60,548 nucleotides of DNA from Chloroflexota bacterium. Its GTDB lineage: Bacteria; Chloroflexota; Limnocylindria; Limnocylindrales; CSP1-4. The position numbers and the translations under genes are program-made. Location: NCBI GenBank assembly GCA_037446495.1, contig JBBIIL010000010.1:1-60548 (forward strand), in the 5' to 3' direction. The notes below the pieces were generated by a model, which worked only from the letters and a program-made list of their open reading frames with translations, did no database searches and was not told where the DNA came from. Below are positions 7,870 through 56,269 of this stretch, one piece after another; within the stretch, counting starts at the first letter, position 1; each line of letters begins with the position of its first letter.

Positions 7870-9699
7870 ATGTGCGGAATCGTCGGCTACACCGGTCCCC
7901 GCGAGGCTGGCCCCATCCTGATCGAGGGGCTTCGGCGCCTCGAGTACCGCGGCTACGACTCCGCGGGCATCGCGCTCGTGGACGAGGCCGGCGACATGTT
8001 CGTCGAGAAGAAGGCCGGCAAGCTCGCGAACCTGCAGACGGCCATCGCGGACCGGACACCCCACGCAGCCATCGGCCTCGCGCACACGAGATGGGCCACG
8101 CACGGGCGGCCGAACGACCTCAATGCCCACCCGCATCAGGACTGCACCGGCGCGATCACCGTCATCCACAACGGGATCATCGAGAACTTCCGCGAGCTGC
8201 GCGACGGGCTCGAGGCGCGCGGCCACAGGCTGACGTCCGAGACCGACACCGAGGCGATTGCCCACCTCGTCGAGGAGTGCTACCAGGGCGACCTGGCCGA
8301 GGCCGTCCGCGACGCGCTCCGCCAGTGCGAGGGCGCCTACGCGGTCGCGGTCATGCATCGCGGCGAGAGGGACCGGCTGGTCGGCGCCCGCGAGAACGTG
8401 CCGCTGGTGGTGGGGCTTGGCGACGGAGAGGCATTCCTGGCCAGCGACGTCGCGGCGATCCTCGCCCACACCCGGCGCGTCATCTTCCTCGAGGAGGGCG
8501 ACGTGGTGGACCTGCGCCCGTGGGGTGCGACCATCACCGGTGTGGACGGAGTCGCCCGCGAGCGGGTCGAGACCCTTGTGGACTGGACGCCAGAGGCCGC
8601 CGAGAAGGGCGGCTACGAGCACTTCATGCTCAAGGAGATCCACGAGCAGCCCGATGCCCTGCGCCAGTCGCTGGCGGGCCGTGTGGGCCACACCGGCCGG
8701 GTCCACGCACCCGAGGTCGCGGGCCTGACCGATGCCTTTCGGCGCGTGACCCGCGTGGAGGTGGTCGCCTGCGGCACCGCGTCGCACGCAGGTCTGGTGG
8801 GTGCTGCCGCGATCCAGGACTGGACCGGGCTTCCGGCTCGCGTGACAGTGGGTTCCGAGTTCCGCTACGCGCCGCCGCCACTCGACGAGGACGTGCTCGT
8901 CATCGCGGTCACGCAGTCCGGCGAGACGGCGGACACGATCGCCCCGGTCCGCTGGGCGAAGGAGCAAGGCTGCCCGATCGTGGCGGTGACCAACACCATG
9001 GGCTCCGCGATCACGCGCGAGGCCAATGCCGTGATGTTCCTCCAGGCCGGCCCCGAGATCGCGGTCGCGGCCTCCAAGACCTTCGTCACCCAGGTCACCA
9101 CGCTCATCGTGCTCGCGGCAGCAATCGCCAAGGCGCGGGGATCGCTCGGGCTCGAGCAGGAGCTGGAGCTGGGCCAGGCCCTTCGAGCGCTGCCCGAGGC
9201 GGCGGCGCGGACCCTGGAGCTGGCCTCCGGCGTGCCCGACCTCGCGAGGCGCTACCTCGGCGCCCGCGGCTTCATGTTCATCGGCCGCGGCTACACGCTG
9301 CCGGGCGCGCTCGAGGGCGCGCTCAAGCTCAAGGAGGTCAGCTACATCCACGCAGAGGGGTATGCCGCCGGCGAGCTCAAGCACGGGCCGATCTCGCTGC
9401 TCGACGCCGAGTGCCCGCTCGTGGCGGTTGCCACCAAGTCGCGCGTGTACGACAAGCTGATCAGCAACGTGATGGAGGGCCGCGCCCGCGACGCGAAGGT
9501 GATCGCGGTGGCCACCGAGGGCGACGAGGGAATCAGCCGGGTCGCCGACGACGTGGTCTGGGTTCCCGAGACGCACGAGGCCCTGAGCCCGGTGCTCGCG
9601 GTGATCCCGCTCCAGCTGTTCGCGTACTACACCGCTGTCGCCCGCGGCACCGACGTGGACCAGCCGCGCAACCTCGCCAAGTCGGTCACGGTGGAGTAG
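7870..9699 (+). CDS. glmS: Glutamine--fructose-6-phosphate aminotransferase
   Basis: N-terminal nucleophile MCGIVGY, two SIS domains, C-terminal LAKSVTVE. Length is 609 aa. Confidence 0.97.
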   Translation: MCGIVGYTGPREAGPILIEGLRRLEYRGYDSAGIALVDEAGDMFVEKKAGKLANLQTAIADRTPHAAIGLAHTRWATHGRPNDLNAHPHQDCTGAITVIHNGIIENFRELRDGLEARGHRLTSETDTEAIAHLVEECYQGDLAEAVRDALRQCEGAYAVAVMHRGERDRLVGARENVPLVVGLGDGEAFLASDVAAILAHTRRVIFLEEGDVVDLRPWGATITGVDGVARERVETLVDWTPEAAEKGGYEHFMLKEIHEQPDALRQSLAGRVGHTGRVHAPEVAGLTDAFRRVTRVEVVACGTASHAGLVGAAAIQDWTGLPARVTVGSEFRYAPPPLDEDVLVIAVTQSGETADTIAPVRWAKEQGCPIVAVTNTMGSAITREANAVMFLQAGPEIAVAASKTFVTQVTTLIVLAAAIAKARGSLGLEQELELGQALRALPEAAARTLELASGVPDLARRYLGARGFMFIGRGYTLPGALEGALKLKEVSYIHAEGYAAGELKHGPISLLDAECPLVAVATKSRVYDKLISNVMEGRARDAKVIAVATEGDEGISRVADDVVWVPETHEALSPVLAVIPLQLFAYYTAVARGTDVDQPRNLAKSVTVE

Positions 9700-31507: not shown

Positions 31508-31792
31508 ATGCGCACGACCGACAAGACCATCCTCAACCCGAGCGGCATCCACGCCCGTCCCGCCGCCACGTTCGTCAAGCTCGCGGCGACGTTCGCATCC
31601 GCCATCACGGTGGAGGACACGACGGCCGGCAAGTCCGCCATCAATGCGAAGTCGATCCTGTCCGTGATGGGCTCGGGGATCAGGCAGGGCCACATCGTGC
31701 GGATCGCCGCCGAGGGTGCGGACGAGGACGCCGCCATCGATGCGCTTGAGGCCGCGATCGACGCCGGGCTGGGCGAGGCGATCCCGGACTGA
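31508..31792 (+). CDS. ptsH: Phosphocarrier protein HPr
   Basis: Active-site GIHARPA (His15 equivalent) and the AKSILSVMG region. Length is 94 aa. Confidence 0.92.
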   Translation: MRTTDKTILNPSGIHARPAATFVKLAATFASAITVEDTTAGKSAINAKSILSVMGSGIRQGHIVRIAAEGADEDAAIDALEAAIDAGLGEAIPD

Positions 31793-33887: not shown

Positions 33888-35225
33888 TCAGACTGCGGTT
33901 CTGGCCCCCTTCGCCTTGTCTGCGGCGCGGTATGCCTCGGCCAGGATCTCGATCGGGTGCTTCGTCCGGACGCCGGTCGCCGTCTCGATCTGCCAGCGGC
34001 AGGTCTCCGAATCGCAGGCCGCCACCGAGGCGCCCGAGCCCCTGACCTTCCGGAACAGGGGCTCGCCGACCTTCATAGCGATCGGGTACTTCTCCTTCTT
34101 CATCCCGTACGTGCCCGCGATGCCGCAGCAGTCGTGGTCCATGTCCTTCGCCCGGAGGCCGGGGACGAGGGCGAACAGGTCGAGGGCCGGGAGCCCGATC
34201 CCGTGGCTCCGGAGCTGGCACGGGGCGTGGTAGGGGAGGTCCTCGTCGAGCCGGCCGAAGTTGGTGTCCAGGCGCCCCTGCTCGTGGAGGTCCAGCAGGA
34301 ACTCGCAGATGTCCCACGTTGCGTGCGCCACGGCGGCCGTGTCGTCGTCACGCATGTCGAGCATCTCCGCGTACTCGGCCTTGAGCGTGTGGGTGCAGGA
34401 CGTCGAGGTGCCGATGATCCGATAGCCGGCCCGCGCGTACTCGGCGAAGACCGTGCCGTTCTTGCACGCGCGCTCGCGGGCGTCGTCGTAGAGACCGTTG
34501 CTGATCAGCGGCAGGCCGCAGCAGACCTGCTCGGGGACGATCGTCTCGAAGCCGTTCCGCTTGAGCACCCAGATCGCTGCCTCGGCGACGTGCGGCTCGT
34601 AGTAGTTCGCCGCGCAGCCGTGGAAGTAGACGACGGCCTTGTCGGGGCCCGGACGCGTCTTCGTCGTGCCGCCGTCGGGCCGCCGGGATTGGCGCCGCTT
34701 CCAGGTCGACTGGAACGTCCGCTTGGAGAACTGCGGGAACGGAGCCTTGCGGTGGACGCCGAGCACCAGCTCGAACCCCGCCCGCACGACACGGTTGTGG
34801 AAGGCGAAGTTGGCGATCGGCGAGAACAGGACGCCCATCGTGCCGACCAGGTCTGTCTGGGCGAGGCCCCAGTCGCGCAGCTTGGGGATCCTGCCCTCCC
34901 GCAGCCGGCCACGGGCCTGGCTGTTCATCTCGGCGATCTTCACGCCGGCCGGGCACACAGTCGTGCACCAGCCGCAGCCGGAGCAGTAGTCCACGGAGTG
35001 GTCCGGGGACTTGGGGTTGACCGAGAAGGGCCCCTGGATCTGCTGCAGGCCCGCGAGCCGGAATCGCTGGGCCTGCGGCCCGGAGTACTTGGGCCCGGCG
35101 AACAGGTCGGTCACCCGCAGCACCGGGCACACGGTGTTGCAGACGTTGCACTTGAGGCACTCGTCGGAGGACGCGGAGACTGGCCGCTCCTCGGCCGCCT
35201 CGCGGACGATGTCGGCGATGCTCAC
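33888..35225 (-). CDS. glpC: Anaerobic glycerol-3-phosphate dehydrogenase subunit C
   Basis: Internal GTG at 35225 of ORF 33888..35504 overlaps the glpB stop (GTGA). Two ferredoxin motifs (CLKCNVCNTVCP, CSGCGWCTTVCP) and two CCG motifs. Confidence 0.88.
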   Translation of the reverse strand: MSIADIVREAAEERPVSASSDECLKCNVCNTVCPVLRVTDLFAGPKYSGPQAQRFRLAGLQQIQGPFSVNPKSPDHSVDYCSGCGWCTTVCPAGVKIAEMNSQARGRLREGRIPKLRDWGLAQTDLVGTMGVLFSPIANFAFHNRVVRAGFELVLGVHRKAPFPQFSKRTFQSTWKRRQSRRPDGGTTKTRPGPDKAVVYFHGCAANYYEPHVAEAAIWVLKRNGFETIVPEQVCCGLPLISNGLYDDARERACKNGTVFAEYARAGYRIIGTSTSCTHTLKAEYAEMLDMRDDDTAAVAHATWDICEFLLDLHEQGRLDTNFGRLDEDLPYHAPCQLRSHGIGLPALDLFALVPGLRAKDMDHDCCGIAGTYGMKKEKYPIAMKVGEPLFRKVRGSGASVAACDSETCRWQIETATGVRTKHPIEILAEAYRAADKAKGARTAV

Positions 35226-36559
35226 GGGTCCATCCTCACAGCATGCGGCTCGCGGCCGATCGGCATCTTGGTCGCCTGGGTGGCCAGCTCGTTGGCGGCG
35301 CGCCAGCCGCTGGCGACGGCGATCCCGTCGCCGCACCGCTCGCGCAGGGACCTCTGGCCGGCCAGCAGGGCCCCGGCGACGACGACGTTGGCCAGGGCCG
35401 CCGGGCGGCCGTCGTGGGGGAGGGGCCTGAGCCCTGCGTCCGTCGCGACACCGGCGGCCTCGATCGGGTGGCCAGACGGGTCGAGCGCGTCGGCCGCCAG
35501 CCACGCCTCGTGCTCCGGGGCGTCCACGTGGAGGTTGAGCAGCGGCTCGACGATCCGCCCGTCACCGGTGGCCACCAGCCCGCCGCCGGCAATGCCGCCG
35601 GTCGCGAGGACCAGCGCGTCGGTGCGTATCAGCTGGGTGCGGGTCGCGGCCTCCATCTCGACGGCAGTCACGCGGCCTGCCTCGAGGTGGATCCGGTGGA
35701 CGGCCTCGCCGATCTGGACGCGCCCGCCCGCGGCGCGGATGCGCTCGCGCAGGACGCGCCACAGGCGCACGCCCGGGATGCTGGGCGGCACGAGCGGGAC
35801 CTCGAACGGCTCCAGCGGGAGCCGGGCGCACAGCTCGGCCCACACCTCGGCGTGCTGCGCGAGGCCGAAGACGGCCGGGACGGCGACGCGCCCGGGCCGC
35901 CCGCCGGCGGCCTGCTTCACCGCGGCGGCGAACCGCCGAATATCGTCGGCGCGCAGCGCCGGGTCGTCGAGGCGGTTCGCCAGGTGCACGGCGTTGAGGT
36001 TGTTGCGGACACTGATGCCGGCGAGCTCCACCGCGACCCCGGCCACGTGGCGCGGGCGGTCCGAGCCCTGCCAGACCGCCTCGCGGCCCAGGCTGTCGGC
36101 GATCGCCGCTGGCCAGAAGTCCTTGAAGCCCGCAGGGCCCGCCACGACGAGCAGCTCGTCCGGGTCCCAGGGCCGTTGTGCCGCGGCCTGCGCGGCGGGG
36201 ACGATCGCGACGCGGCGGGTCCCGCCGATGGCGGTGGGCACGCGCCGGATCGGCGTGTCGAGGTTCCCGGCGTAGGGGAGCCCGCCGGCCTCGAGGCGCT
36301 CCAGGAGCCACGCCATCGACGGCGCCACGTCCGGGGCGAGGAAGCTGTAGGGGTGATCCTCCCTCGCCAGGCGCGCGACGCCTTCGGCCGGGGTCCCGGA
36401 CCCCACGGGGGCGGCGACATCCATGCCGCCGGCTCCCCAGTGTGTGCTGGCGTGGCCCTTGGCCACCAGCGTGACGGCCGCGCCGCTCTCGGCGAGGCGC
36501 GCGGCGGCAACCAGGCCCGCGAGGCCGGCGCCGATGACGACGACGTCAGCGTGCGGCAT
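35222..36559 (-). CDS. glpB: Anaerobic glycerol-3-phosphate dehydrogenase subunit B
   Basis: Internal ATG at 36559 of ORF 35222..36634 gives MPHADVVVIGAGLAGL. It overlaps the glpA end by 14 nt and sits between glpA and glpC. Confidence 0.85.
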   Translation of the reverse strand: MPHADVVVIGAGLAGLVAAARLAESGAAVTLVAKGHASTHWGAGGMDVAAPVGSGTPAEGVARLAREDHPYSFLAPDVAPSMAWLLERLEAGGLPYAGNLDTPIRRVPTAIGGTRRVAIVPAAQAAAQRPWDPDELLVVAGPAGFKDFWPAAIADSLGREAVWQGSDRPRHVAGVAVELAGISVRNNLNAVHLANRLDDPALRADDIRRFAAAVKQAAGGRPGRVAVPAVFGLAQHAEVWAELCARLPLEPFEVPLVPPSIPGVRLWRVLRERIRAAGGRVQIGEAVHRIHLEAGRVTAVEMEAATRTQLIRTDALVLATGGIAGGGLVATGDGRIVEPLLNLHVDAPEHEAWLAADALDPSGHPIEAAGVATDAGLRPLPHDGRPAALANVVVAGALLAGQRSLRERCGDGIAVASGWRAANELATQATKMPIGREPHAVRMDP

Positions 36560-38228
36560 TGAGGCTCTCCTCATCCACCGCGGGCGCGGGCGCCGAGGCC
36601 ATGGACTCGAGGCCCATGACGCCGACGTAGACACCGTTGGTCATCATCAGCTCCTGGAGCCCGCGGCCCTCCGCGATGGGCCGGACGCCCTTGAAACGCT
36701 CGCGCAGGAAGCCTGTGAGTGCACGGTCGGCGATGGCCGCGTGCAGTGCGCCCGTCCCGGGCCCGTGGCCGTCCACGACGTGCGCACCGGGGGCCGGCTG
36801 GCCGGTGGCGGCGGTGTGCTGGTCCAGGCGCTCCGCCACGAGGCCCGCGACCCGGAAGGTGCAGAACGCGCCCTGGCAGGGTCCCATCCCGACGCGGGTC
36901 CCGCGCCGGACGTCGTCGATGCTGCACGGCCAGTGCGTGTCCAGGTAGGCGTCCACCATCCGGCGGGACACGATCTCGCACTCGCACAGGAGGTCGGCGT
37001 CGCCGCCGCCCTCCGCCTCGTGGTCAGCCAGGCGGTGGCCCAGCCAGTAGGTGTGGCCGGCCGCCTGGTTGGGGAGCACCTCGTGGGCGGTGGTGCACGG
37101 GGCGGTCACGCCCAGCTTGGAAGCCACGACATCCACGGTCTGCTCAGCCATGAGCCGGTGGGTCGTGAGCTTGCCGCCCACGATCGACACGAAGTTCTCG
37201 ACGCCCTGGTCCGCGTGGTCGATGATCGCGTGGGCCCGCGAGATCGAACGGTTGCCCACGCCCGGCACCGCGTCCGCAGGCGGCTGGTAGAGCGGACGCA
37301 CGCCGGCGTAGGCGCGCAGGATGCGCATCCGCGGCAGGTCCGGGAACATCTTCGTGCCCTCGGCGACGAGGCGGACGACCTCCTCCCGCGTGATCGCGTA
37401 GTTGTCGGGGTCCGGGACCTTGATGTCGGTCGTGCCAAGGATCGCCACAGTGTGGACGGGGACCATGATGTCGCCGTCACTCGAGCGGTGGCAGCGGTTG
37501 ACGACCGCGTCGGTCATGCGGTGGTTGTAGATGAGCATCGTGCCCTTGCCGGGCGTCATCTCCACCTTGACGTTGGCGAGCGCCGCGATCTGGCCGGCCC
37601 ATGCGCCCGCGGCTGACACGACGAACCTGGTCCACACGCGGGATACCGTTCCGGTGCGCTCGTCGCGCAGGGTGACCTCGGAGATCCGGTCCCCGATCCG
37701 CTCCATGCCGATGACGCGGTGATAGGTCAGGGCGGTGCTGCCGTGGAGCTTCGCGTCCGCGAGGGTGGACTCGATCAGCTGCCAGGGCTCGATGGAGCCG
37801 TCCGGGGTCCTGAAGGCGCGACGGATCCTCGGGTTGAGCGCTGGCTCCCTCGTCAGAAGGTCGGCGACCTTCACCTCGTCGAAGTCAACGCCGCTCTGCG
37901 TGCAGTTGTCGGCGAACGCCTCGACGTAGTCGTCGGGATCGTCGGGCGTGGCCACGAAGTAGCCGCCGGTGTCCTCGATGCTCGCGGGCGCGATCCGGCG
38001 CAGCACGCGGTTCTCATCGATGCACTCCCGGGCCGCGAGCTTGTCCTTGCCCACGTAGCGACCCCCGGAGTGGAGGAGTCCGTGGTAGCGGCCCGTCGTC
38101 CCGGTGCCGAAGTCGCCGCGCTCGACGAGCAGGGACTTGAGACCTCGTCGGGCCAGGTCCCGGAGGACCCCGGCGCCGGTGACGCCTCCTCCGATGACGA
38201 GGACGTCGACGGTGTGCGGCACCGCCAT
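36546..38228 (-). CDS. glpA: Anaerobic glycerol-3-phosphate dehydrogenase subunit A
   Basis: FAD motif DVLVIGGGVTGAG and C-terminal BFD-like 2Fe-2S strings CECEIV and GMGPCQGAFC. I prefer ATG 38228 (GAGG 8 nt upstream) over GTG 38237. Confidence 0.9.
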   Translation of the reverse strand: MAVPHTVDVLVIGGGVTGAGVLRDLARRGLKSLLVERGDFGTGTTGRYHGLLHSGGRYVGKDKLAARECIDENRVLRRIAPASIEDTGGYFVATPDDPDDYVEAFADNCTQSGVDFDEVKVADLLTREPALNPRIRRAFRTPDGSIEPWQLIESTLADAKLHGSTALTYHRVIGMERIGDRISEVTLRDERTGTVSRVWTRFVVSAAGAWAGQIAALANVKVEMTPGKGTMLIYNHRMTDAVVNRCHRSSDGDIMVPVHTVAILGTTDIKVPDPDNYAITREEVVRLVAEGTKMFPDLPRMRILRAYAGVRPLYQPPADAVPGVGNRSISRAHAIIDHADQGVENFVSIVGGKLTTHRLMAEQTVDVVASKLGVTAPCTTAHEVLPNQAAGHTYWLGHRLADHEAEGGGDADLLCECEIVSRRMVDAYLDTHWPCSIDDVRRGTRVGMGPCQGAFCTFRVAGLVAERLDQHTAATGQPAPGAHVVDGHGPGTGALHAAIADRALTGFLRERFKGVRPIAEGRGLQELMMTNGVYVGVMGLESMASAPAPAVDEESLNAAR

Positions 38229-38322
38229 GGTGGTCACCTCGCTGCGTGCCCGCGGGTCAACGCGCCCCGGGCTGCGTCATTCGCCGGACCCCGTCGCCCG
38301 ATGGCGACTGCCCGGCCTCACT

Positions 38323-38730
38323 CTAACCCTTGGGCAGGGAGGCGGCCCCCTCGGCTGCCTCCAGGACCTCGTCGAGGCTCGAGCCCGTGCTGGCCTGGAC
38401 GGCCGCGATCACGGCCCCCTCCACGATGGGCCCGCGGCTGAGGCGCACGTTGTCGGGGTTGCCGAGCAGCTCCAGCGCGGTCCTCGTGGCGAGCACGGCG
38501 CTGCCGAGGTCCGCGACGACCACGACGCCGGACCCCGCGTCCGCCTCGCCGATCGCGGCGGCGATGCGGGCGGCGTCCGTGCCGATGGCGCCGTCCTCCA
38601 TCCCGCCCGCGGGAACGATGCGCACGCCGGGCCCGGCCATCTGGCCCGCCAGCTCCGCCGTCCCATCGGCAATGCGGCTCGAGTGCGAGACCACGACGAG
38701 CCCGACGCAAGCGGCGGCTGCTGCGGTCAC
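38323..38730 (-). CDS. dhaM: PTS-dependent dihydroxyacetone kinase phosphotransferase subunit DhaM (EIIA-Man-like, single domain)
   Basis: VGLVVVSHS phospho-His motif and VVVADLGSA. Length is 135 aa. GGGAGGA lies upstream of the GTG. Confidence 0.85.
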   Translation of the reverse strand: MTAAAAACVGLVVVSHSSRIADGTAELAGQMAGPGVRIVPAGGMEDGAIGTDAARIAAAIGEADAGSGVVVVADLGSAVLATRTALELLGNPDNVRLSRGPIVEGAVIAAVQASTGSSLDEVLEAAEGAASLPKG

Positions 38731-38750
38731 GAGTTCCTCCCGCTCAAGTG

Positions 38751-38784
38751 ACAGCCCCGACGCCCGTTGGGGCGTCGGGGCTGT
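38751..38784 (-). other. Perfect 15-bp GC-rich stem-loop between glpK and dhaM
   Basis: ACAGCCCCGACGCCC-GTTG-GGGCGTCGGGGCTGT. Every position pairs and there is no flanking U-tract. It sits in the 77-nt glpK-dhaM spacer. Confidence 0.7.
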
Positions 38785-38807
38785 ACGGGTTCAGGTCCCG
38801 ACGAGGA

Positions 38808-40304
38808 CTAGTCGACCCAGGCGAAGGTCCGCGTGACGGCCTTCTTCCACTGGGCGTACTCCTTGTCGCGGAGCTCGGCCGACATGGCCGGGCTCCACTC
38901 GGCGCCGCGCGCCCAGTTCGCGCGCAGGTCCTCGACCTCGGCCCAGTAGCCGACCGCGAGGCCGGCGGCGTAGGCCGCCCCCAGCGCCGTCGTCTCGGCG
39001 ACGACCGGCCGGATGACCGGGACGCCGAGGACGTCGGACTGGAACTGCATGAGCAGGTTGTTGAACACCATTCCGCCGTCGACCTTGAGGGCCGTGAGCG
39101 GAACGCCGGAGTCGGCGTTCATGGCGTCCAGGACTTCGCGGGTCTGCCAGGCGGTCGCCTCGAGGACGGCGCGCCCGATGTGGCCCTTGGTCACGTAGCG
39201 GGTGAGGCCGGCGATGACGCCGCGCGCGTCGCCCTTCCAGTACGGGGCGAACAGGCCCGAGAACGCCGGCACGAAGTACACGCCACCGTTGTCCTCGACC
39301 GTGGCCGCGAGGGCCTCGATGTCGGAGCTCTGCTCGATCATGCCCAGGTTGTCGCGCAGCCACTGCACGAGGGCGCCGGTGATCGCGATCGAGCCCTCGA
39401 GGGCGTACACAGCCGGCTTGTTGCCGATCTTGTAGCCCAGGGTGGTGAGGAGGCCGCTCTTGGACGGGACGATCTTCTCGCCCGTGTTCATGAGCATGAA
39501 GCAGCCGGTGCCGTAGGTGTTCTTCGCCTCGCCGGCGGAGAAGCACGTCTGGCCGAAGAGGGCCGCCTGCTGGTCGCCGAGGTCGCCTGCGACCGGCACG
39601 CCGGCGAGGTCGCCGACGCACGTGCCGTAGACCTCCGAGGAAGCCTTGATCGCCGGGAGCATGGACTTCGGCACGCCCATGATGCCCAGGATCTCGTCGT
39701 CCCAGTCGAGGGTCTCGAGGTTCATGAGCATGGTGCGGGAGGCGTTGGAGACGTCCGTGACATGCACGCCGCCATTGACGCCGCCGGTGAGGTTCCAGAT
39801 GCACCAGGTGTCCATGTTGCCGAACACCAGCTTGCCGGCCTCAGCCTTCTCGCGGGCGCCGGCGACGTTGTCCAGGATCCAGCGGATCTTGGGGCCCGAG
39901 AAGTAGGTGGCCAGCGGCAGGCCGACCTTCGCGCGGAAGCGGTCCTGGCCGCCGTCCTTGGCGAACTCGTTGACGAGGACGTCGGTGCGGGTGTCCTGCC
40001 ACACGATGGCGTTGAACACGGGCTGCCCGGTCGTCTTGTCCCAGACCAGCGCGGTCTCGCGCTGGTTGGTGATGCCGACGGCGGCGAGATCGGCAGCGGT
40101 GATGCCGGCCTTGGCCAGAGCGCCCCTGATGACTTCCTGGCTGCGTGCCCAGATCTCGTTCGCGTCGTGCTCGACCCACCCGGGCTTCGGGTAGATCTGC
40201 TCGTGCTCCTTCTGGTCGATCGCCACGACCGCTCCGGCGTGGTCGAAGATCATGAAGCGGGTGCTGGTGGTGCCCTGGTCGAGGGCTCCGACGTACTTGC
40301 TCAT
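38808..40304 (-). CDS. glpK: Glycerol kinase
   Basis: N-terminal [17 protein letters not shown] and FGGY-family strings throughout. Length is 498 aa. Confidence 0.97.
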
Positions 40305-40336
40305 GCGGATCTGTGCTCCCGTATGGTGCTTGGTGC

Positions 40337-40984
40337 CTACGCGCCGTAGAACGCGTCGGCTGCGGCCTTGAGCAGGAGATGCGAGGACGTCGCGCCCGGG
40401 TCCTGGTGACCCGCGCTGCGCTCTCCGAGGTAGCTTGCCCGGCCCTTGCGGGCGACGAGCGGGATGGTGGCGACCATGCCCTGCTCCGCGGCGGCGACCG
40501 CTGCATCGAGGGCGGCGGATGGGGTGTCCCCCCGGTCCAGGCCCACATGCAGCGCCTCGCGCGCCGGCAGCAGTGCATCCAGCATGGTCTTGTCGCCTGG
40601 CTCGGCCTTGCCCAGGCGCTGGATCCCGGCGATCCCGGCATCCAGGGCCGTGGCGAAGTCGGCCAGCTCGATCTCGGCCTTGCCGGCCGTTCCGCCCCCG
40701 AGTTGGAGGAACAGCGTGCCGTAGAGCGGCCCGCTCGCGCCACCCACCGTGGAGACGAGCGTCATCCCGACGCCCTTGAGGAGGGCGCCGACATCGCCAA
40801 CGGGCAGCGCGGGGAGCTTGGCCACCACGGCCGTGAAGCCCCGATCCATGTTGATGCCGTGGTCGGCATCCCCGATGGCGGAGTCCAGGTCCGTCAGGTG
40901 CTCCCTCTCGGCGTGCACCCGCTCGGCGACAAGCTTGACCCAGGCCACCACGTCGTCGTAGCTGATGCTTGACGCGGTGCTCAT
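40337..40984 (-). CDS. dhaL: Dihydroxyacetone kinase ADP-binding subunit DhaL
   Basis: Internal ATG at 40984 of ORF 40337..41491. Motifs [31 protein letters not shown] and [21 protein letters not shown]. Confidence 0.92.
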
Positions 40985-41019
40985 CGTGTTACGCCCCCTG
41001 CCGGTTGCGGGCTGCGAGG

Positions 41020-42018
41020 TCAGGCGCCCCAGCGAAGGCCGGGCGTGTTGACCGGGGCATCCCAGTACTTGGTGAGCTCGTCGTCGAGCCGGAGGAGGGT
41101 GATGGAGCAGCCGGCCATCTCGAGCGAGGTGATGTAGTTGCCGACCAGGCTGCGGATGATCGTCACGCCACGCGCCGCGCACATCTGCGCGAGCTTGTTG
41201 TAGACGATGTAGAGCTCGACGAGCGGGGTGCCGCCGAGGCCGTTGACGAAGGCGAGGACGTTGTCGCCCGCCGCGAACGGCAGGTCGTCCAGGATCGGGG
41301 TGGCGAGCATCTCGGTGATCTCGTCGGCCGTGGCGAGCTTCTCCCGGGACCGGCCCGGCTCGCCGTGGATCCCGACGCCGATCTCCATCTCGTCGTCCGC
41401 GATCTCGAACGTGGGCTTGCCGGCCATGGGCACCGTGCAGCTCGTGAGGGCCATGCCCATCGAGCGGACGTTGTCCTGGACCTTCTGGCACAGCGCCGTG
41501 ACGGTCGCGAGGTCAGCACCGGCCTCGGCGGCCGCGCCGACGATCTTCTCCGCGAGCACGGTGCCGCCGACGCCGCGCCGGCCGGCCGTGTACAGGGAGT
41601 CCTTCACCGCGACGTCATCGGCGATGACGACGGCCGTGACCTCGTGCCCCTCGGCACGCGCCATCTCGGCCGCCATCTCGAAGTTCATGATGTCGCCGGT
41701 GTAGTTCTTGACGATGTGCAGCACGCCCGCGCCGCTGTCCACGGCCTTGGTGGCCGCGAGCATCTGGTCCGGGACGGGCGAGGTGAACACAGCGCCCGGG
41801 CAGGCTGCGTCCAGCATGCCCATGCCGACGAAGCCGCCGTGCATCGGCTCGTGGCCCGAGCCGCCACCCGAGATCACGCCGACCTTGCCGGCGCGCGGGG
41901 CGTCCTTGCGGACGACGATGTTCGGCTCCTCGACCCGGATGTAGTCCGGGTGGGCGGCGAGCATCCCGGCGAGAGCCTCGTCGACGACGTTCTCGGGTGC
42001 GTTGATGAGCTTCTTCAT
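41020..42018 (-). CDS. dhaK: Dihydroxyacetone kinase DHA-binding subunit DhaK
   Basis: [24 protein letters not shown] and the Dak1 fold. Length is 332 aa. Confidence 0.95.
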
Positions 42019-42042
42019 GCACTCTCCCCATTCTGGTGGAGG

Positions 42043-42081
42043 GCTCGCCGCCGGGAACCGGAGGGAACCCCGGCGGCGAGC
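42043..42081 (-). other. 13-bp stem-loop between glpF and dhaK
   Basis: 42043-42055 pairs perfectly with 42069-42081 (GCTCGCCGCCGGG / CCCGGCGGCGAGC) around a 13-nt loop. It sits in the 91-nt spacer. Confidence 0.65.
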
Positions 42082-42109
42082 GGGACGTTCGTCAGCGACT
42101 GCGCGCTGG

Positions 42110-42874
42110 CTACATCTTCATGAAGTTGACCCAGACACCGTTGTAGACCAGCGCAGCCACGATGCCGCCCACAATCGGGCCGACGACCGGGACCCAGGAG
42201 TATTCCCAGTCCGAGCCGCCCTTGCCGGGGACCGGCAGGATCGCGTGGATGATGCGCGGGCCCAGGTCGCGGGCCGGGTTGATCGCGTACCCGGTCGTGC
42301 CGCCGAGCGACAGGCCGATCGAGAACACGAGGATGGCGACCGGCAGGGCGCCGAGGGCGGCCATGCCACCCTTGGCGATGTGGACGCCGTCGGCGGTGCC
42401 GTTGGTGCCGAACGCGAGGACGACGAACACCAGCACGAAGGTGCCGATGACCTCGGAGACGAAGTTGAGCGGGAGGTTGCGGATGTTCGGGCCCGTGGAG
42501 AAGACCGCGAGCTTGAGGCCCTGGTCCTCGGTGGCCTTGAAGTGATCCCAGTAGTGGATCGTGACGAGCGTCGCGCCGATCATCGCGCCGACGAACTCGC
42601 CGATGAGGTACTCGGGGACCTGCCCCCAGGTGATGCCACCGGTGACCGCGAGGCCGATCGTCACGGCCGGGTTCAGGTGGGCGCCGCTGATGGGGCCGGC
42701 CACGACCACGCCGACGAAGACGGCGAAGGCCCATGCCGCGGTGATGACGATCCAGCCCGCGTTGTTGGACTTGGACTTCGCGAGCAGCACGCCGGCCACC
42801 ACGCCGTCGCCGAGCAGGATCAGGAGCCCCGTCCCGAAGACCTCGGCCAAGAAGATGTTGGTATCCCAAACCAT
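42110..42874 (-). CDS. glpF: Glycerol uptake facilitator (MIP/aquaglyceroporin)
   Basis: Two NPA boxes (NPAVT, NPARD) and six hydrophobic helices. Length is 254 aa. Confidence 0.93.
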
Positions 42875-43089
42875 GTGCAGTCACTCCCTCTGGTGGAATC
42901 GGCCCCCACGGGGCCGGGGTTCCAGATCCCTCCGCCCGCGGGCTGCGCCGCATTCCTCGGGTGCGCGGCCGCCGCAGGTCGAATAGGTGCGAAGGTCCTC
43001 CGGTGGCTCCTCCTTTCGCAACCTCGCGGTGGGAACGCCGCAGCGATCAGACTGCGCGAAGACCCACCGCTGCAAGCGCGGATGGCCCG

Positions 43090-43135
43090 ACTCTAGAGGC
43101 GGAAGGCGCCAGTGAATCTCAAGAGAAAGTGAATC
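43090..43135 (-). promoter_or_regulatory. Putative activator-dependent promoter of the glpF operon: direct repeat GATTCACT-N9-GATTCACT plus -10 TAGAGT
   Basis: On the minus strand, GATTCACT lies at 43135-43128 and 43118-43111 (17-bp period). The proximal copy supplies GATTCA at the -35 position, 17 nt from TAGAGT (43095-43090). This is an AT-rich island in GC-rich DNA. Confidence 0.35.
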
Positions 43136-43236: not shown

Positions 43237-44016
43237 CTACAGCCGCTGGGGCGCGAGCTCATCGCCGGGGCCGCCAGGAGCTCCTGGCGCCGGACCGTCG
43301 ACCCCGTTCTCCCCGAGGTCGCGCTGTGCGGTCGCCACGGCGTCGGCGAGGCAGCGGACGAGGATGGCGCTCGAGGCAGCACCGGGATCCAGGTGGCCGG
43401 CCGAGCGCTCCCCGAGGTAACTTGCGCGGCCCTTGCGGGCGACGAGCGGGATCGTGGCGACGGCACCGGCCTCCGCGGCCTCGGCGACACCCAGCATGAC
43501 GCTGTCGAGGGGCAGGTCCGTGGGCGCGCCCCGCAAGGCCTCGAGGGCCGGCACCAGCGTGTCGAGCATGGTCTTCTCGCCGGGGACCGCCCGGCCCAAG
43601 GCCGCGATCCCGCTGACCGCCCCGTCGAGGACCACCAGCGCGAGCCCTCGGGCGCCAGGGGTTGCCTCGCCCGCGCTGACGCGCATCCGCTCGCCAGCCG
43701 TCATGAGTGCCCGCCCGTACAGTGCGCCACTTGCCCCGCCGACCACGCCGAGGAGCCGCCGTCCGGCGGCCGTCAGCAGCGCGCCGACATCGTCACCCGG
43801 GCCGTCGGCAGCGTCGAGATCGGCCAAGACCGCCATCAGCCCGCGATCGAGATTGATGCCGTGATCGCCATCGCCGATCGCGGCGTCCAGCTCCGTGAGC
43901 CACAGGCGCCGTTCGTGGACCCTCGACGCGGCGCACCGCAGCCAGGCGTCCACGACGCGCGCCTGCGTCGCTGCGGTTTCGGCGTCGTGCGGCTGCGGAG
44001 GGCGCGGGTCAGTCAC
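43237..44016 (-). CDS. dhaL: Second DhaL-type (Dak2) ADP-binding subunit, no adjacent DhaK
   Basis: Internal GTG at 44016 of ORF 43237..44274 overlaps the dhaM2 end by 8 nt. Motifs LDAAIGDGDHGINLDRG, GGASGALYG, GEKTMLDTL and [21 protein letters not shown]. It has a C-terminal Gly/Pro tail of about 40 aa. Confidence 0.85.
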   Translation of the reverse strand: MTDPRPPQPHDAETAATQARVVDAWLRCAASRVHERRLWLTELDAAIGDGDHGINLDRGLMAVLADLDAADGPGDDVGALLTAAGRRLLGVVGGASGALYGRALMTAGERMRVSAGEATPGARGLALVVLDGAVSGIAALGRAVPGEKTMLDTLVPALEALRGAPTDLPLDSVMLGVAEAAEAGAVATIPLVARKGRASYLGERSAGHLDPGAASSAILVRCLADAVATAQRDLGENGVDGPAPGAPGGPGDELAPQRL

Positions 44017-44437
44017 GGGTTCGCTTCGGGACGGACGCGGCGCGCTCCGCAGCGTGTGCCACGGCCTCGAGGTCCACCCCGCCCGCGGCCACCACGGCGG
44101 CCAGGACGGCACCCTCGACGAACGGTGCCTCGGACACACGGATGTGTTCCCTCGCGGCGACATCCAGCTCGTCGAGCGCCACGTCGAGCGCCATCGACGC
44201 GCTGCCGAGGTCCAGCAGCACCAGCACCCCGTCGTCCGCGGTCCTGGCGAGGACGGACCGGAGTGCATCGGCAACGTCGAGGCCGTTCGTGCCGAGGCGT
44301 CCGTCGCCGAGACCCCCTGCCCCGGCCACCGGGACCGACGGAGCTGCCTGCGCGATCATCGCGACCAGGCCGCGCACCACGTCCTCGCTGTGCCCCACCA
44401 GCAGTAGACCGACCACCCTCACGCTCCGTCCGGCCAT
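44009..44437 (-). CDS. dhaM: Second DhaM-type EIIA-Man-like phosphotransferase subunit
   Basis: VGLLLVGHS phospho-His motif and VLVLLDLGSA. Length is 142 aa. It is a paralog of the gene at 38323..38730. Confidence 0.8.
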   Translation of the reverse strand: MAGRSVRVVGLLLVGHSEDVVRGLVAMIAQAAPSVPVAGAGGLGDGRLGTNGLDVADALRSVLARTADDGVLVLLDLGSASMALDVALDELDVAAREHIRVSEAPFVEGAVLAAVVAAGGVDLEAVAHAAERAASVPKRTRD

Positions 44438-44501
44438 CGTGTCATGGCGTCCCCTGCCGCTCGTGGGCGGCGGCCCGGCCCGCGCGGGCGACGCAGGGTC
44501 C

Positions 44502-44507
44502 TACACT
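44502..44507 (+). promoter_or_regulatory. Putative -10 box TACACT, 10 nt upstream of the DhaL-like gene
   Basis: TACACT at 44502-44507; ATG at 44518. It sits in the 80-bp divergent spacer shared with dhaM2. Confidence 0.3.
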
Positions 44508-44517
44508 ACGCTCGCCC

Positions 44518-45267
44518 ATGAGCCACCGCAGCGGCGACGATCCTCCCGCTCCCGAACCCGCCGCCGCGCCCGGTCCCAAGCCGGACGCCGGCCGGAGGCG
44601 CCACGCCGCGCCCGGGCCCGCGACCATCACGGGCACTGACCTGCTGGCGGTCATGGCCCGGGCCGAGCACCTGCTCCTCCGCAATCGCGTCCTGCTGGAC
44701 CGGCTGGACGCCGAGCTGGGCGATGGCGACCACGGCGAGAACATGAGCGTCGGCTTCGGCGACGCGGTTCGCGCCGCGGCTGCCGCGGCCGCGGGCGGCG
44801 ACATCGGGGATGTGGGCGACCTCCTGCGGCAGCTCGGCCACCTCCTGGTCGCGGGCGTCGGCGGCGCCGGCGGGTCGCTCTACGGGACGGCGTTCATCGA
44901 GGCCGGAATCGCCGTCGCTGGGCTTCCGGGCCTCGAGCCCGAGGACACCGCCCGGGCGTTGGACGCGGCCGCCGAGGGGCTCGCAAGGCGGGGCCGCTGT
45001 CGGCTGGGCGACAAGACGATCTACGATGCGCTGCGCCCGGCCGCGGACGCGTTCGCTGCGGCGCTGGCGACGGGGGCGGGCCAGGAGGCGGCAGTCGTGG
45101 CCGCGATCCACGCCGCGCGCGCTGGGATGCACGCGACGACGCCGCTCGTCGCCCGCCGGGGCCTGGCCCTCCGGCTCGGAGAGCGTTCCCGGGGCCACCA
45201 GGACCCGGGAGCCACGTCGTGCTACCTGCTGATGCGGTCCCTCCTCGCCACGGGCGGTCGACGCTGA
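44518..45267 (+). CDS. Divergent third DhaL-like (Dak2-domain) protein, first gene of a kinase/regulator operon
   Basis: Internal ATG at 44518 of ORF 42961..45267. Motifs LDAELGDGDHGENM, VGGAGGSLYG and GDKTIYDAL. The C-terminal motif is altered to ARRGLALRLGERSRGHQDPGA. It has a Pro/Ala-rich N-terminal extension. Confidence 0.8.
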   Translation: MSHRSGDDPPAPEPAAAPGPKPDAGRRRHAAPGPATITGTDLLAVMARAEHLLLRNRVLLDRLDAELGDGDHGENMSVGFGDAVRAAAAAAAGGDIGDVGDLLRQLGHLLVAGVGGAGGSLYGTAFIEAGIAVAGLPGLEPEDTARALDAAAEGLARRGRCRLGDKTIYDALRPAADAFAAALATGAGQEAAVVAAIHAARAGMHATTPLVARRGLALRLGERSRGHQDPGATSCYLLMRSLLATGGRR

Positions 45268-46928
45268 TGGCCGGCGGCTTCGGGACTTCGGCGCTCACCG
45301 AGTCCGAGCTTCGTCAGACCTTCGAGGAGGCCCAGCGTCAGGCCGACACGGTCTTCGCCCAGTACCAGCTCAGCCAGCTTCTCGCCCTCGGCGGCCAGCT
45401 GCCGCTCATGGCCGGCAGCGTCATCGGCGAGCTGGTCCGCGCGAGCGACGCCGTCGTGGGCGCGATCTGGCTGGCCGCCTCGGGCGAGGTCGAGCTGCGC
45501 ATCGTCGCCACGGAGCCCGAGCTCGGAGGGCAGGCGGACGACGCCACCAGGTGGCGGCGAGGCGAGGCTGTCCGCGACGCCGCAGGGGGTGAGGACGTGC
45601 CGGGTCACGTCATCCCCGCCGGGTTCGCGTCCGCGGCCGTCGCCGAGGCCTGGGTCCGGCGCAACGGTTGGCACGGCGTCTCCCTCGACGAGCGCCGCGA
45701 CATGGGCGAGGGCGCGCTGGACGCCCGGATCGTGGGCTTCATCGCTCTCCGGCCTGCCGACGGGGCGCGCCTCCCGGCCGACCGCATCCGCCTGCTGGGC
45801 CTGGTCCGCCATGAGCTGGCGATCGCGTTCCGCGCGGCCCAGCTGCGCGAGCAGCTGGCGGGCGAACAGGCGCTCCTGGCGGCGATCCTCGACGGCGCGA
45901 GCGAGGGGATCGTGGCGGTCGACGAGCGGCGCCGCGTGGTCCGGCTCAACCGGGCGGCCACGGCCCTCCTAGGCGGGCGGATCCCGCCGGCCGGCTCCAC
46001 GTGCGAGGCGGTGCTGCGGTGCGGCGACGGAGAGGCGTTGCGCTGCGGTCCGCGGTGCCGCTTCGAGGAGGTGTTGACCAGCCCCTCGGGGATCGTGGAG
46101 ACCGAGATGCACCTGGTCACGGACGCCGCGGGCGAGATCCCCATTGCCGCCTCGTTCTCGGCGATGGCAGGACGGGAGGGCGGCGCCGTGGTCGTCCTGC
46201 GCGACCTGCGCCCGGAGCATGCTGCCGAGGAGCTGCGGGCCAGCTTCCTCGCCGCGGTCTCGCACGAGCTGCGGACCCCGCTGGCGCTGATCTCGGGTTA
46301 CGTGGACAGCCTTCTCGACCTCGGCCTGGACCCGGCCGCGCAGCGGCGCTCGGTCGAACGCATCGGGCACGCCGCGGCACGGCTGCAGTCCCTCGTCGAC
46401 GAGCTCCTCGACCTGACCCAGTTGGAGCACGCGAGCCTCGCTCTGCACCGGTCCCGCGTGGACGTCGCCGGGCTCCTGGGCTCGGTGATCGGGGGGCTCG
46501 GGGAGTGGCCGGGCATGCCGCCCGTGAGCGTCCACGTGCCGGCCGGCCTGCCGGACGTCTCCGTGGACCCGGTTCGCATCGGCCACGTCCTCGTCAGTCT
46601 CGTGGACAACGCCCGCCGCTACGGGGGCCCGGGAGCCATCGCGATCAGGGCGCGCCGCCAGCGAAGCACGGTTGTCATCACCGTCGAGGATGACGGGCCC
46701 GGCATCCCGCCCGACGAGCGCGTCCTCGTCTTCGACCGCCTCTACCGGGGGCGCGCGGCGCGCGACGCCCACCCCGGTGGCACGGGCCTCGGCCTGCACG
46801 TCTGCCGCCGCCTTGTGGAAGCGCACGGCGGGCGGATCTGGGTCGACCCGGACCACGGGCGCAGCGCGATCTCCTTCAGCGTGCCGGCGGCGCGGCGCCG
46901 GCCGGCTCACACCAGCGGAGCGGTGTGA
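45267..46928 (+). CDS. Soluble sensor histidine kinase (GAF-like, PAS, HisKA, HATPase_c)
   Basis: ATG at 45267 overlaps the upstream stop (TGATG). H-box SHELRTPL, N-box VDNARRYG, G-boxes EDDGPGI and GGTGLGL. No TM helix. GAF-like end-string RIVGFIALRP...LLGLVRHELAIAFRAAQL and PAS start LLAAILDGASEGIVAVD. Confidence 0.9.
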   Translation: MAGGFGTSALTESELRQTFEEAQRQADTVFAQYQLSQLLALGGQLPLMAGSVIGELVRASDAVVGAIWLAASGEVELRIVATEPELGGQADDATRWRRGEAVRDAAGGEDVPGHVIPAGFASAAVAEAWVRRNGWHGVSLDERRDMGEGALDARIVGFIALRPADGARLPADRIRLLGLVRHELAIAFRAAQLREQLAGEQALLAAILDGASEGIVAVDERRRVVRLNRAATALLGGRIPPAGSTCEAVLRCGDGEALRCGPRCRFEEVLTSPSGIVETEMHLVTDAAGEIPIAASFSAMAGREGGAVVVLRDLRPEHAAEELRASFLAAVSHELRTPLALISGYVDSLLDLGLDPAAQRRSVERIGHAAARLQSLVDELLDLTQLEHASLALHRSRVDVAGLLGSVIGGLGEWPGMPPVSVHVPAGLPDVSVDPVRIGHVLVSLVDNARRYGGPGAIAIRARRQRSTVVITVEDDGPGIPPDERVLVFDRLYRGRAARDAHPGGTGLGLHVCRRLVEAHGGRIWVDPDHGRSAISFSVPAARRRPAHTSGAV

Positions 46929-47713
46929 GCAACGGGGGCCGTGCCTCCCGCGACGGTCCGCGGGCGCTCGATGGGCGGCGCGTCGTCCCGCCCCCAACTT
47001 CGGAGGCGTCCAGGCCCGGGCACGGCGAACTGGTCCTGATCGTCGACGACGAGCCGGAGTTCCGCGAGCTCGTGGAACTCTGGGTGAGCCGCCAGGGCTG
47101 GCGCACGGCCGCGGCCGCCGACGGCCTGGAGGTGATGCGCCGATTCGAGGAGGAGGCGCCAGATCTGGTGCTCCTTGACATCAACCTGCCGGGCCTGGAC
47201 GGCTGGCAGGTGACCGAATGGATTAGGCGCGTGAGCACGGTGCCCATCCTGATGGTCACGGCCATGGGCGCCGAGGAGGACGTGGTGCGCGGCCTGGTCG
47301 CGGGCGCCGACGACTACCTCACGAAGCCCGTGCGGATGCACGAGCTCGTGGCACGGGTCGCCGCCGCGTTGCGGCGCGTTCAGGTCGCGAGTGGCCGGTC
47401 GGGTGAAGCGGTGATCGATCGCGAGGGCCTGCGGATCGAGCCGGTGACGCACCGCGTGGTGGGCGAGACAGGGGAGGTCCACCTCACCCCGACCGAGTTC
47501 CGGCTGCTCGTCACGCTCGCCCGCCACCCGGGCGTCCTGATGGGCCACGCGGAGCTGCTGCGCGGCGTGTGGGGCCCGACCTACGGCGAGGAGACCCAGC
47601 TCCTGCGGGTCACGATGCGCAACCTCCGCGCGAAGCTCGCGGCCGCGTCGCCGGGGCGCACCTTCATCGCCACGGAGTACGGCCTGGGCTACCGGTTCGA
47701 GCCCGCGCGCTGA
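46925..47713 (+). CDS. OmpR/PhoB-family response regulator
   Basis: GTG at 46925 overlaps the kinase stop (GTGTGA). Receiver strings LIVDDEP and LLDINLPGLDG. wHTH strings LTPTEFRLLVTLA and YGLGYRF. The N-terminal extension is about 35 aa. Confidence 0.92.
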   Translation: MSNGGRASRDGPRALDGRRVVPPPTSEASRPGHGELVLIVDDEPEFRELVELWVSRQGWRTAAAADGLEVMRRFEEEAPDLVLLDINLPGLDGWQVTEWIRRVSTVPILMVTAMGAEEDVVRGLVAGADDYLTKPVRMHELVARVAAALRRVQVASGRSGEAVIDREGLRIEPVTHRVVGETGEVHLTPTEFRLLVTLARHPGVLMGHAELLRGVWGPTYGEETQLLRVTMRNLRAKLAAASPGRTFIATEYGLGYRFEPAR

Positions 47714-53106: not shown

Positions 53107-53185
53107 TCCCAGCGATCCCGAACGGTGACCTCCCGCGGGCCGACTACCCATGGGCCCGCTCGCACGCCAAAGGAGCCCACACAGC

Positions 53186-55960
<2,775 letters not shown>

Positions 55961-56032: not shown

Positions 56033-56269
56033 TCCGTCTCGCGCCGCGCTCGCCCGTGGCCACCACTCGGCGCCTGCCCGATCCGCGGCAGATGTGCAAT
56101 CGGGCATTTGTCGGGGGTAGACCCGGGCACAACTCGGTGGCACGATACGGGTCCGTCGGCAAGCCACGGGGGGCTTCCGGCGCAGCCCAGACGGAGGACG
56201 GGATTGCCCGTTGGTCGTGACCGTGGGCGGCGCGCTGCCCGCGCCGATGATCCGGTCCTGCCGGCCGTC

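Follow-up and report, generated by a model that had tools for sequence, protein, structure and literature searches.

A DhaL paralogue coupled to a GAF-PAS histidine kinase as a candidate co-sensor beside a dihydroxyacetone kinase operon in Limnocylindria

Why should a third gene of the DhaL type stand directly upstream of a histidine kinase gene, at a locus that already encodes a complete dihydroxyacetone (DHA) kinase? This question is raised by a stretch of 60,548 nucleotides (hereafter the window; positions 1 to 60,548 of contig JBBIIL010000010.1, assembly GCA_037446495.1) from a Chloroflexota bacterium of the Limnocylindrales, in which the gene here called dhaL3 is followed by genes for a GAF-PAS histidine kinase and an OmpR/PhoB-type response regulator, near the operon glpF-dhaK-dhaL1-glpK-dhaM1 and the pair dhaM2-dhaL2 (Table 1). 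In the control of Escherichia coli dhaKLM, the phosphorylation state of the nucleotide bound to DhaL, which is set by the phosphotransferase system (PTS) and by DHA, is the signal. An initial annotation of the window had proposed that the same logic acts here through a two-component system, and had known of no characterised DhaL-controlled histidine kinase; in keeping with the latter, a search of the available literature library gave only unrelated papers, and none that connects a histidine kinase with DhaL or Dak2 proteins. We put at about even the chance that DhaL3 is a co-sensor which reports PTS and DHA status to the kinase, and that the regulator in turn activates the dha operon.

The arrangement was surveyed in one genome per species, scanned with an alignment of the kinase sensor region only, which returned 80 loci; layouts were read from a tblastn map of 81 non-redundant loci. 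In 80 of the 81 the gene immediately preceding the kinase was of the DhaL3 type, the single exception (L047) being a contig that begins at the kinase gene, and in the mapped loci the kinase was followed by the regulator. No other feature of the locus is as well conserved as this adjacency, which persists from 69% down to 33% sensor identity, also where the flanking genes differ. Of 79 loci, 70 have a dhaL3 stop that overlaps the kinase start by 1-8 nt (72 when overlaps of up to 14 nt are counted); 53 of the 70 have an ATGA junction, and the kinase and regulator genes overlap in 65 of 72. The Dak2-kinase adjacency, noticed by the initial annotation at one locus, was therefore found to be general in the gene-neighbourhood survey, with translational coupling in ~90% of loci, and since it recurs in 80 other species-level genome bins it is no chance juxtaposition. 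The same layout of ten genes surrounds three kinase homologues (71%, 63% and 47% identity), in one case with different flanks downstream. In the surveyed loci dhaL3 was never in an operon with dhaK, dhaM was divergent from dhaL3 in nearly all, and a PTS-type dha operon always adjoined the module, the HPr gene lying within that operon or, in the window, apart from it. All loci came from Limnocylindria-type bins, apart from the labels of two (L014 and L069), where the full module was found in bins labelled Rokubacteria and Methylomirabilota, which probably reflects mis-binning, lateral transfer being the alternative.

Two layouts were distinguished. In clade A (sensor identity 42-69%) the layout is like that of the window, while clade B (33-38%) has one leftward operon, dhaM-ptsH-glpF-dhaK-dhaL, divergent from dhaL3-kinase-regulator, and has neither dhaL2 nor a second dhaM. 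The conserved core is therefore dhaM divergent from dhaL3-kinase-regulator, next to glpF-dhaK-dhaL. The DhaK-less dhaM2-dhaL2 pair, which had been taken as part of the system, falls outside this core; dhaL2 is missing from all of clade B and is therefore not essential, and the suggested co-occurrence of such a pair with the Dak2-kinase adjacency holds in clade A and fails in clade B. The product of dhaL2, a gene found only in clade A, is of the catalytic type with KGRASY kept, and has 51% identity to DhaL1 and 45% to DhaL3. Judged from these features, DhaL2 arose by a later duplication of the catalytic DhaL, and the dhaM2-dhaL2 pair is a clade-specific addition. The dhaM2 product is a single-domain DhaM of the EIIA-Man type with a phosphorylatable His16 (VGHS). 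In clade B generally, as in L053 (~8370-8690, minus strand), the HPr gene (MSEIRLVVLDPSGLHARPA...) lies between dhaM and glpF, unlike that of the window, which stands alone (31508-31792). Two loci with sensors as divergent as those of clade B, yet with glpK present, carry an additional Dak2-only gene that runs convergently towards the regulator gene (L055, 12267-12863, and L065, 7620-8225, both on the minus strand) and may be a relocated equivalent of dhaL2.

As the initial annotation had stated, the GDxDHG, GGxxGxLYG and DKT strings are kept in all three, and in DhaL3 they are found at 44719-44736 (GDGDHG), 44860-44886 (the GGAGGSLYG loop) and 45007-45018 (GDKT). Dak2 spans the full length of DhaL3, with a score above the curated cut-off (PF02734 / TIGR02365), and in 80 DhaL3 orthologues the Mg-binding D30, D35 and D37 (E. 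coli numbering), H38, the GGxSG loop and GDKT were 99-100% kept. DhaL3 is nonetheless no ordinary DhaL, being without the GRASY of the catalytic copies. Where these have RKGRASYLG, DhaL3 reads RRGLALRLG (45154-45180), and in the same 80 orthologues KGRASY (177-181) has become RGLALR (R178L in 96%, S180L/M in 98% and Y181R in 100%). GRASY is kept by DhaL1, DhaL2, the DhaL of E. coli and of Lactococcus lactis, and a yeast Dak. Similarly, RGKAEPG of the catalytic copies is RRGRC in DhaL3, and two cysteines have been gained, C161 (nt 44998) and C235 (nt 45220), which are 99-100% conserved among the orthologues, against Ala and Val/Ser/Thr at the corresponding positions of catalytic DhaL. Taken with a cysteine site in the kinase, described below, they hint at a thiol or metal link between both proteins. 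The best explanation of the pattern would be that DhaL3 is an old DhaL paralogue which has retained the binding of Mg-nucleotide and is no longer built like a catalytic subunit. As it passes the NCBIfam DhaL equivalog cut-off, it is named plain DhaL by sources. E. coli DhaL covers its nucleotide with a short cap, which is inserted into DhaK and DhaM and retards the exchange of ADP, and Dak2 domains without the cap exchange nucleotide faster (PMC9136124). We infer that the substituted GRASY segment of DhaL3 belongs to this cap.

Co-variation of the genes was followed with pairwise distance matrices over 59 loci, partial correlations being taken after the common distance had been regressed out. 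The matrices separated two gene modules, one of dhaK, glpF and dhaL1, within which r was 0.80-0.92, and one of dhaL3, the sensor, the kinase core, the regulator and dhaM2. The partial correlation with the sensor was 0.60 for DhaL3 vs 0.27 for DhaL1, and the divergence of dhaM2 tracked that of the kinase and regulator, not that of dhaK.

The kinase had been described as lacking a transmembrane helix and as having a GAF-like input region followed by PAS, and both descriptions were borne out. Its highest 19-residue Kyte-Doolittle mean is 1.40, and from its sequence the kinase is taken to be soluble and cytoplasmic. The N-terminal 200 residues model as a GAF fold (predicted local distance difference test, pLDDT, 87), after which comes the PAS domain. 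In the AlphaFold2 model of residues 1-330 (pLDDT 87) an N-terminal helix (12-40), which is highly conserved with the consensus AQREADTVFAQYQLSQLLA, is followed by a GAF-type alpha/beta domain (45-162), a long helix (171-212), the PAS domain (214-313) and a helix (315-329) that runs into the H-box; modelled alone, the N-terminal domain had a pLDDT of 87 and a predicted template modelling score of 0.78. The transmitter is that of a class I HisKA kinase (Pfam HisKA E 1e-16, HATPase_c E 3e-25), with His333 (nt 46263) in SHELRTP and with the N, G1, F and G2 boxes present (DDGPG, FDR, GTGLGL). A Pfam GAF match was obtained in one distant and one close homologue. A search of 1.84 billion proteins with the N-terminal 200 residues yielded only 83 matching representative clusters, and the kinase family is therefore a narrow one. 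No NCBIfam equivalog cut-off was reached by the kinase or the regulator, the best for the regulator being MtrA (196 bits vs 300).

According to what is stated in PMC10084136, E. coli DhaR is activated by DhaL::ADP and repressed by DhaK through its GAF/PAS N-terminal domain. The likeness of the kinase input to this module, suggested in the initial annotation, was found to stand for the architecture and not for a specific relation in sequence or fold. When the whole sensor was searched with Foldseek, DhaR(N) chains ranked 11, 15 and 18 among many tandem PAS/GAF proteins; with the GAF domain alone, the matches were generic GAF domains such as Geobacter 3e0y, phytochrome and cyanobacteriochrome GAFs, DevS and PtsP, and DhaR was not within the top 50. 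A single-sequence search of the Protein Data Bank (PDB) with the sensor found nothing, the sensor profile reached DhaR in the PDB at E 0.059, in a match confined to the linker, and the probability from hhalign was 31% over the linker-helix region, the DhaR sequence used having been checked against 4LRX. Given these values and the generic GAF matches, homology of the sensor to DhaR(N) was ruled out as support.

A feature that had escaped the initial annotation is a four-cysteine site in the PAS domain. All four cysteines are invariant across an alignment of 40 homologues, and the motif was found in 46 of the 46 intact clade-A loci, where it follows the pattern C-x5-C-x7..43-C-x3-C with a spacer of 7-43 residues between the second and third cysteine. 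In clade B the site is Cys3His (C-x5-C-x5-H-x5-C-P). The cysteines flank the E-alpha and F-alpha helices in the AlphaFold2 model, a region which is the usual cofactor position of PAS domains. Because three ligands are kept while one Cys is exchanged for His, the site is probably a metal or iron-sulphur (Fe-S) site, and it may serve the kinase as a further input, or even as its main one.

The third gene of the module encodes an OmpR/PhoB-type regulator, with a receiver and a winged-helix Trans_reg_C domain. OmpR/PhoB-type activators use helically phased tandem direct repeats that replace the -35 element. Upstream of glpF in the window, the -10 TAGAGT (43095-43090) is preceded by TTGAGA 21 bp upstream (43122-43117) and by TTCAC 11 bp further (43133-43129); in 39 of 40 clade-A loci the same promoter has a TAnnnT -10, TTGA(C/G) 21 bp upstream and TnSAC 11 bp beyond. 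No -35 is present at canonical spacing, TTGA(C/G) being too distant to serve as one, and a scan for consensus sigma-70 promoters found none in the glpF promoter region. The dhaM promoter of clade B has three CTTG(A/C)(T/C) repeats in 11-bp phase, 32, 21 and 10 bp from the -10. Such 11-bp-phased TTGAC-like repeats would suit OmpR/PhoB-type activation and form a candidate operator. The proposal that the OmpR-type regulator controls the adjacent glycerol/DHA operon is in keeping with these repeats, although the target itself is one that we infer. TCAAGA, read on the plus strand upstream of glpF, was rejected as an operator in its own right, as the alignment showed it to be the reverse complement of TTGA(C/G), 21 bp from the -10; TTGA(C/G) was reinterpreted as the putative promoter-proximal member of the 11-bp-phased repeat pair. 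Between dhaM2 and dhaL3, TACACT lies 10 nt before the dhaL3 ATG and ATACACTACGCT is conserved in close relatives, and a near-leaderless dhaL3 transcript is predicted. TTGAC-type repeats were absent from the clade-A dhaM2-dhaL3 intergenic region, and with no repeats and TACACT upstream of dhaL3, the sensor genes look constitutive and the catabolic operon regulated.

The glpF leader of ~209 nt (about 42875-43083) is for the most part divergent, apart from a strongly conserved purine-rich block, GCGAAAGGAGGAGCCACCGGAGGA, at 42996-43019 on the minus strand, which contains two Shine-Dalgarno-like runs with no start codon behind them. In clade B, GAAAGGAGG is the real ribosome-binding site of dhaM, and the leader block may have been kept as a remnant or serve in regulation. 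A structured RNA in this leader was considered and rejected, the RNAalifold consensus being weak (-6.9 kcal/mol) and free of covariation support; Rfam gave no match anywhere in the window.

The rest of the gene content agreed with what had been described. The genes named for the operon glpF-dhaK-dhaL-glpK-dhaM were all recovered with their claimed domains by Pfam and NCBIfam, the profile searches placed Dak2 in all three copies and PAS_8 in the kinase, and the second dhaM-dhaL pair has the 8-nt overlap reported for it (dhaM2 stop and dhaL2 GTG, GTGACTGA at 44009-44016). The gap of 80 bp (44438-44517) between this pair and the third Dak2 gene on the opposite strand, and the TGATG shared by the dhaL3 stop and the kinase start (45265-45269), were likewise as described; the kinase and regulator genes do overlap, by GTGA at 46925-46928, with the trivial correction that the hexamer GTGTGA lies at 46923-46928 and not at 46925-46930. 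The PTS-dependent DHA kinase set of the window is complete for DhaK, DhaL, DhaM and HPr, the PTS phosphocarrier on which DhaM depends (NCBIfam/Pfam); Enzyme I was not found within the window. The G+C content of the window is ~72%, and the genome bins closest to it carry the label Chloroflexota or Candidatus Limnocylindrales. A few kb downstream of the module, after a pyruvate phosphate dikinase gene (53150-55960), lies a gene (56108-59185, plus strand) for a 1025-residue protein with an AAA_22 NTPase and a C-terminal Trans_reg_C domain; its equivalent in L001 has MalT winged-helix and BTAD matches, and the product is a large AfsR/MalT-like regulator.

Table 1. Features of the window (positions in the 60,548-nt stretch)
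Feature	Position	Strand	Evidence and remarks
dhaL3	44518-45267	+	Pfam Dak2 E 2e-41; TIGR02365 160.5 bits vs cut-off 138.3; 249 aa
Histidine kinase	45267-46928	+	553 aa; Pfam PAS_8 203-253, HisKA 324-388, HATPase_c 434-541
PAS four-cysteine site C246, C252, C260, C264	46002-46058	+	TCxxxLxC...LRCGxRCxF
OmpR/PhoB-type response regulator	46925-47713	+	262 aa; Pfam Response_reg E 1e-30, Trans_reg_C E 8e-19
dhaM2-dhaL3 divergent promoter region	44438-44517	.	Conserved -10 TACACT 44502-44507
dhaM2	44009-44437	-	Pfam EIIA-man E 3e-17; TIGR02364 100.9 bits vs cut-off 98.25
dhaL2	43237-44016	-	Pfam Dak2 E 4.5e-43; TIGR02365 187.7 bits; 259 aa
glpF operon promoter with candidate operator	43090-43133	-	TAGAGT, TTGAGA, TTCAC
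Catabolic operon glpF-dhaK-dhaL1-glpK-dhaM1	38323-42874	-	Presumed regulatory target; conserved beside regulatory module
glpF	42110-42874	-	Pfam and NCBIfam
dhaK	41020-42018	-	Pfam Dak1 E 7e-137; TIGR02363 502.6 bits vs cut-off 406
dhaL1	40337-40984	-	Dak2; true ATG checked; TIGR02365 237.4 bits
glpK	38808-40304	-	Pfam and NCBIfam
dhaM1	38323-38730	-	EIIA-man/DhaM; TIGR02364 122.2 bits
glpA/B/C-like genes	33888-38237	-	Pfam; downstream of catabolic operon
ptsH (HPr)	31508-31792	+	Pfam PTS-HPr PF00381 E 2.5e-27; tblastn; His15 in GIHARPAA

How such a module might work can be outlined from the gene content, the domains, the conserved order and coupling, the retention and loss of motifs and the promoter repeats. 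DhaL3 would be made in a fixed ratio with the GAF-PAS histidine kinase and serve it as a protein co-sensor. HPr~P would phosphorylate DhaM, DhaM~P would turn the ADP bound to DhaL3 into ATP, and DHA-loaded DhaK would discharge it, so that the ADP/ATP state of DhaL3 would report both substrate and PTS status. The kinase input (N-terminal helix, GAF and PAS) would read this state and pass it through the PAS-DHp helix to His333, and the phosphorylated OmpR-type regulator would bind the 11-bp-phased TTGAC-like repeats and activate the glpF/dha promoter. The Cys4/Cys3His PAS site probably adds a metal or redox input, and the dhaM2-dhaL2 pair of clade A, which looks constitutive, probably acts as a buffer and provides phosphoryl donor at a basal level. 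The scheme supposes that DhaL3 binds the kinase, that it is phosphorylated by way of DhaM and discharged by DhaK, and that both the sign of the regulation and the target of the regulator are as drawn here. In its full form, in which DhaL3::ADP/ATP is the messenger that docks on the kinase and sets a kinase/phosphatase switch, with the Cys4/Cys3His site as an added metal or redox input, we hold it tentatively, at somewhat less than an even chance.

Several points weigh against this reading. The loss of GRASY might prevent charging of DhaL3 by DhaM or its discharge by DhaK, in which case there would be no nucleotide cycling. The GAF domain is generic and not DhaR-specific, and homology with the known DhaL receptor thus lends no support. 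The mirror-tree correlation fits the model but is inflated by shared history and rate classes and is weak evidence, and the promoter repeats could belong to another regulator. Nor is there support from gene fusions, as the only apparent Dak2-kinase fusions (P0250, P0284 and P0259) were rejected as frameshifted assemblies in which real segments alternate with Arg/Pro-rich out-of-frame stretches; such chimeric translations mimic Dak2-kinase fusions and could mislead surveys of domain architecture. Finally, the Cys4/Cys3His site and the GAF pocket offer the kinase alternative inputs. If the former prevailed, the kinase would be mainly a redox, oxygen or metal sensor, in which the state of an Fe-S cluster or metal would set kinase activity and switch glycerol/DHA routes, as the cytoplasmic Fe-S PAS kinase NreB senses oxygen, and DhaL3 would only fine-tune or scaffold it; this we regard as unlikely. 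The invariance of the four cysteines, in the 40 homologues as in the 46 clade-A loci, their place in the E-alpha/F-alpha cofactor region, the exchange of one ligand for His with three kept in clade B, which is typical of a metal site, and the neighbouring anaerobic-type glpA/B/C glycerol-3-phosphate dehydrogenase with its Fe-S domains all speak for such a sensor. It leaves unexplained, however, why a nucleotide-binding DhaL paralogue is constantly coupled to the kinase; moreover, the C-x5-C...C-x3-C spacing is unlike the CxxC...CxxC of NreB, sequence alone does not assign a cofactor, and a structural zinc site is equally compatible with the data.

The replacement of GRASY in all DhaL3 orthologues while the Mg/nucleotide ligands were kept could also mean that DhaL3 stands outside the DhaM/DhaK cycle, exchanges its nucleotide freely and reports the ATP/ADP ratio, or another ligand of the Dak2 barrel, independently of the PTS. 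The faster exchange of Dak2 domains without the cap (PMC9136124) would fit, provided that the segment is part of the cap. Yet dhaM is conserved, lies immediately divergent from dhaL3 and diverges along with the kinase module, which is itself always by a PTS-type dha operon with HPr nearby, and we consider a PTS-independent DhaL3 quite improbable. More improbable still, if only by a little, is that the GAF domain of the kinase senses a metabolite directly, such as dihydroxyacetone phosphate, glycerol-3-phosphate or DHA, while DhaL3 is a catalytic subunit, spare or specialised, and is linked to the kinase by nothing but a common transcript. The GAF fold is bona fide with ligand-binding GAF domains as its nearest structural matches, and DhaL3 does score above the NCBIfam DhaL equivalog cut-off, but DhaL3 is without the motif found in every catalytic Dak2 compared, its gene never has its own dhaK as neighbour, it has diverged in step with the kinase and not with DhaK, and strict coupling to a kinase across deep divergence would be hard to keep for an unrelated enzyme subunit.

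If DhaL3 does act as a co-sensor, the kinase would be the first under the control of a DhaL protein, and DhaR and DhaQ-DhaS would be joined by a third, independent case in which a subunit of DHA kinase, or a paralogue of one, governs a dha operon. For experiment, the module offers a small soluble sensor pair, a defined candidate operator and a candidate metal site. The co-sensor logic of E. coli DhaR, in which a subunit of a trigger enzyme informs the regulator, would have been reinvented with a two-component transmitter, making a compact genetic link from PTS phosphoryl flux to His-Asp signalling. Genes annotated as ordinary 'DhaL', their difference hidden by a pass of the equivalog cut-off, would be given a function, and a kinase family without a characterised member would be defined in the Limnocylindria (Chloroflexota), a widespread and uncultured lineage of soil and freshwater.

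Parts of the proposed system have counterparts elsewhere. NreABC of Staphylococcus combines the Fe-S PAS kinase NreB with the GAF protein NreA, and shares with the present module a cytoplasmic kinase whose PAS domain has four cysteines, as well as the presence of GAF in the sensory complex. Here, in contrast, the GAF domain is fused to the kinase, the pair is of the HisKA and OmpR type and not HisKA_3 and NarL, the spacing of the PAS cysteines differs from the CxxC...CxxC of NreB, and no nitrate or oxygen link is shown. In E. coli, EIIA-Ntr contacts KdpD and PhoR and so carries the PTS state to two-component kinases. Like these systems, the module would pass a PTS-linked state to a kinase by protein-protein contact, but the proposed messenger is a protein-bound nucleotide, on a protein translationally coupled to the kinase, where EIIA-Ntr is a phospho-histidine protein.

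The DhaQ-DhaS system of L. lactis consists of a DhaK paralogue and a TetR-type activator for the dha operon, and NCBIfam holds a model of DhaQ as 'DhaKLM operon coactivator'. Both there and, as proposed, here, the sensor is a paralogue of a DHA-kinase subunit, non-catalytic and dedicated to this role, whose gene accompanies that of a regulator; the difference is that DhaQ is derived from the substrate subunit DhaK and works with a one-component TetR regulator, whereas DhaL3 is derived from the nucleotide subunit DhaL and is paired with a histidine kinase. Compared with the E. coli DhaR system, no DhaK-type co-repressor is evident here, the ligand would be a dedicated paralogue with GRASY changed to GLALR where E. 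coli uses its working DhaL, and the output is HisKA/HATPase_c with an OmpR-type regulator, while DhaR is an AAA+ enhancer-binding protein with a helix-turn-helix. What the kinase has in common with DhaR is an N-terminal GAF-type domain, a linker helix and PAS, and the two systems would share a DHA-kinase subunit as protein ligand, the state of the DhaL-bound nucleotide as signal and the adjacent dha operon as target. Thus, both a DHA-kinase subunit as the ligand of a regulator and a contact from the PTS to a kinase are known, while the wiring of the module that joins them is undescribed.

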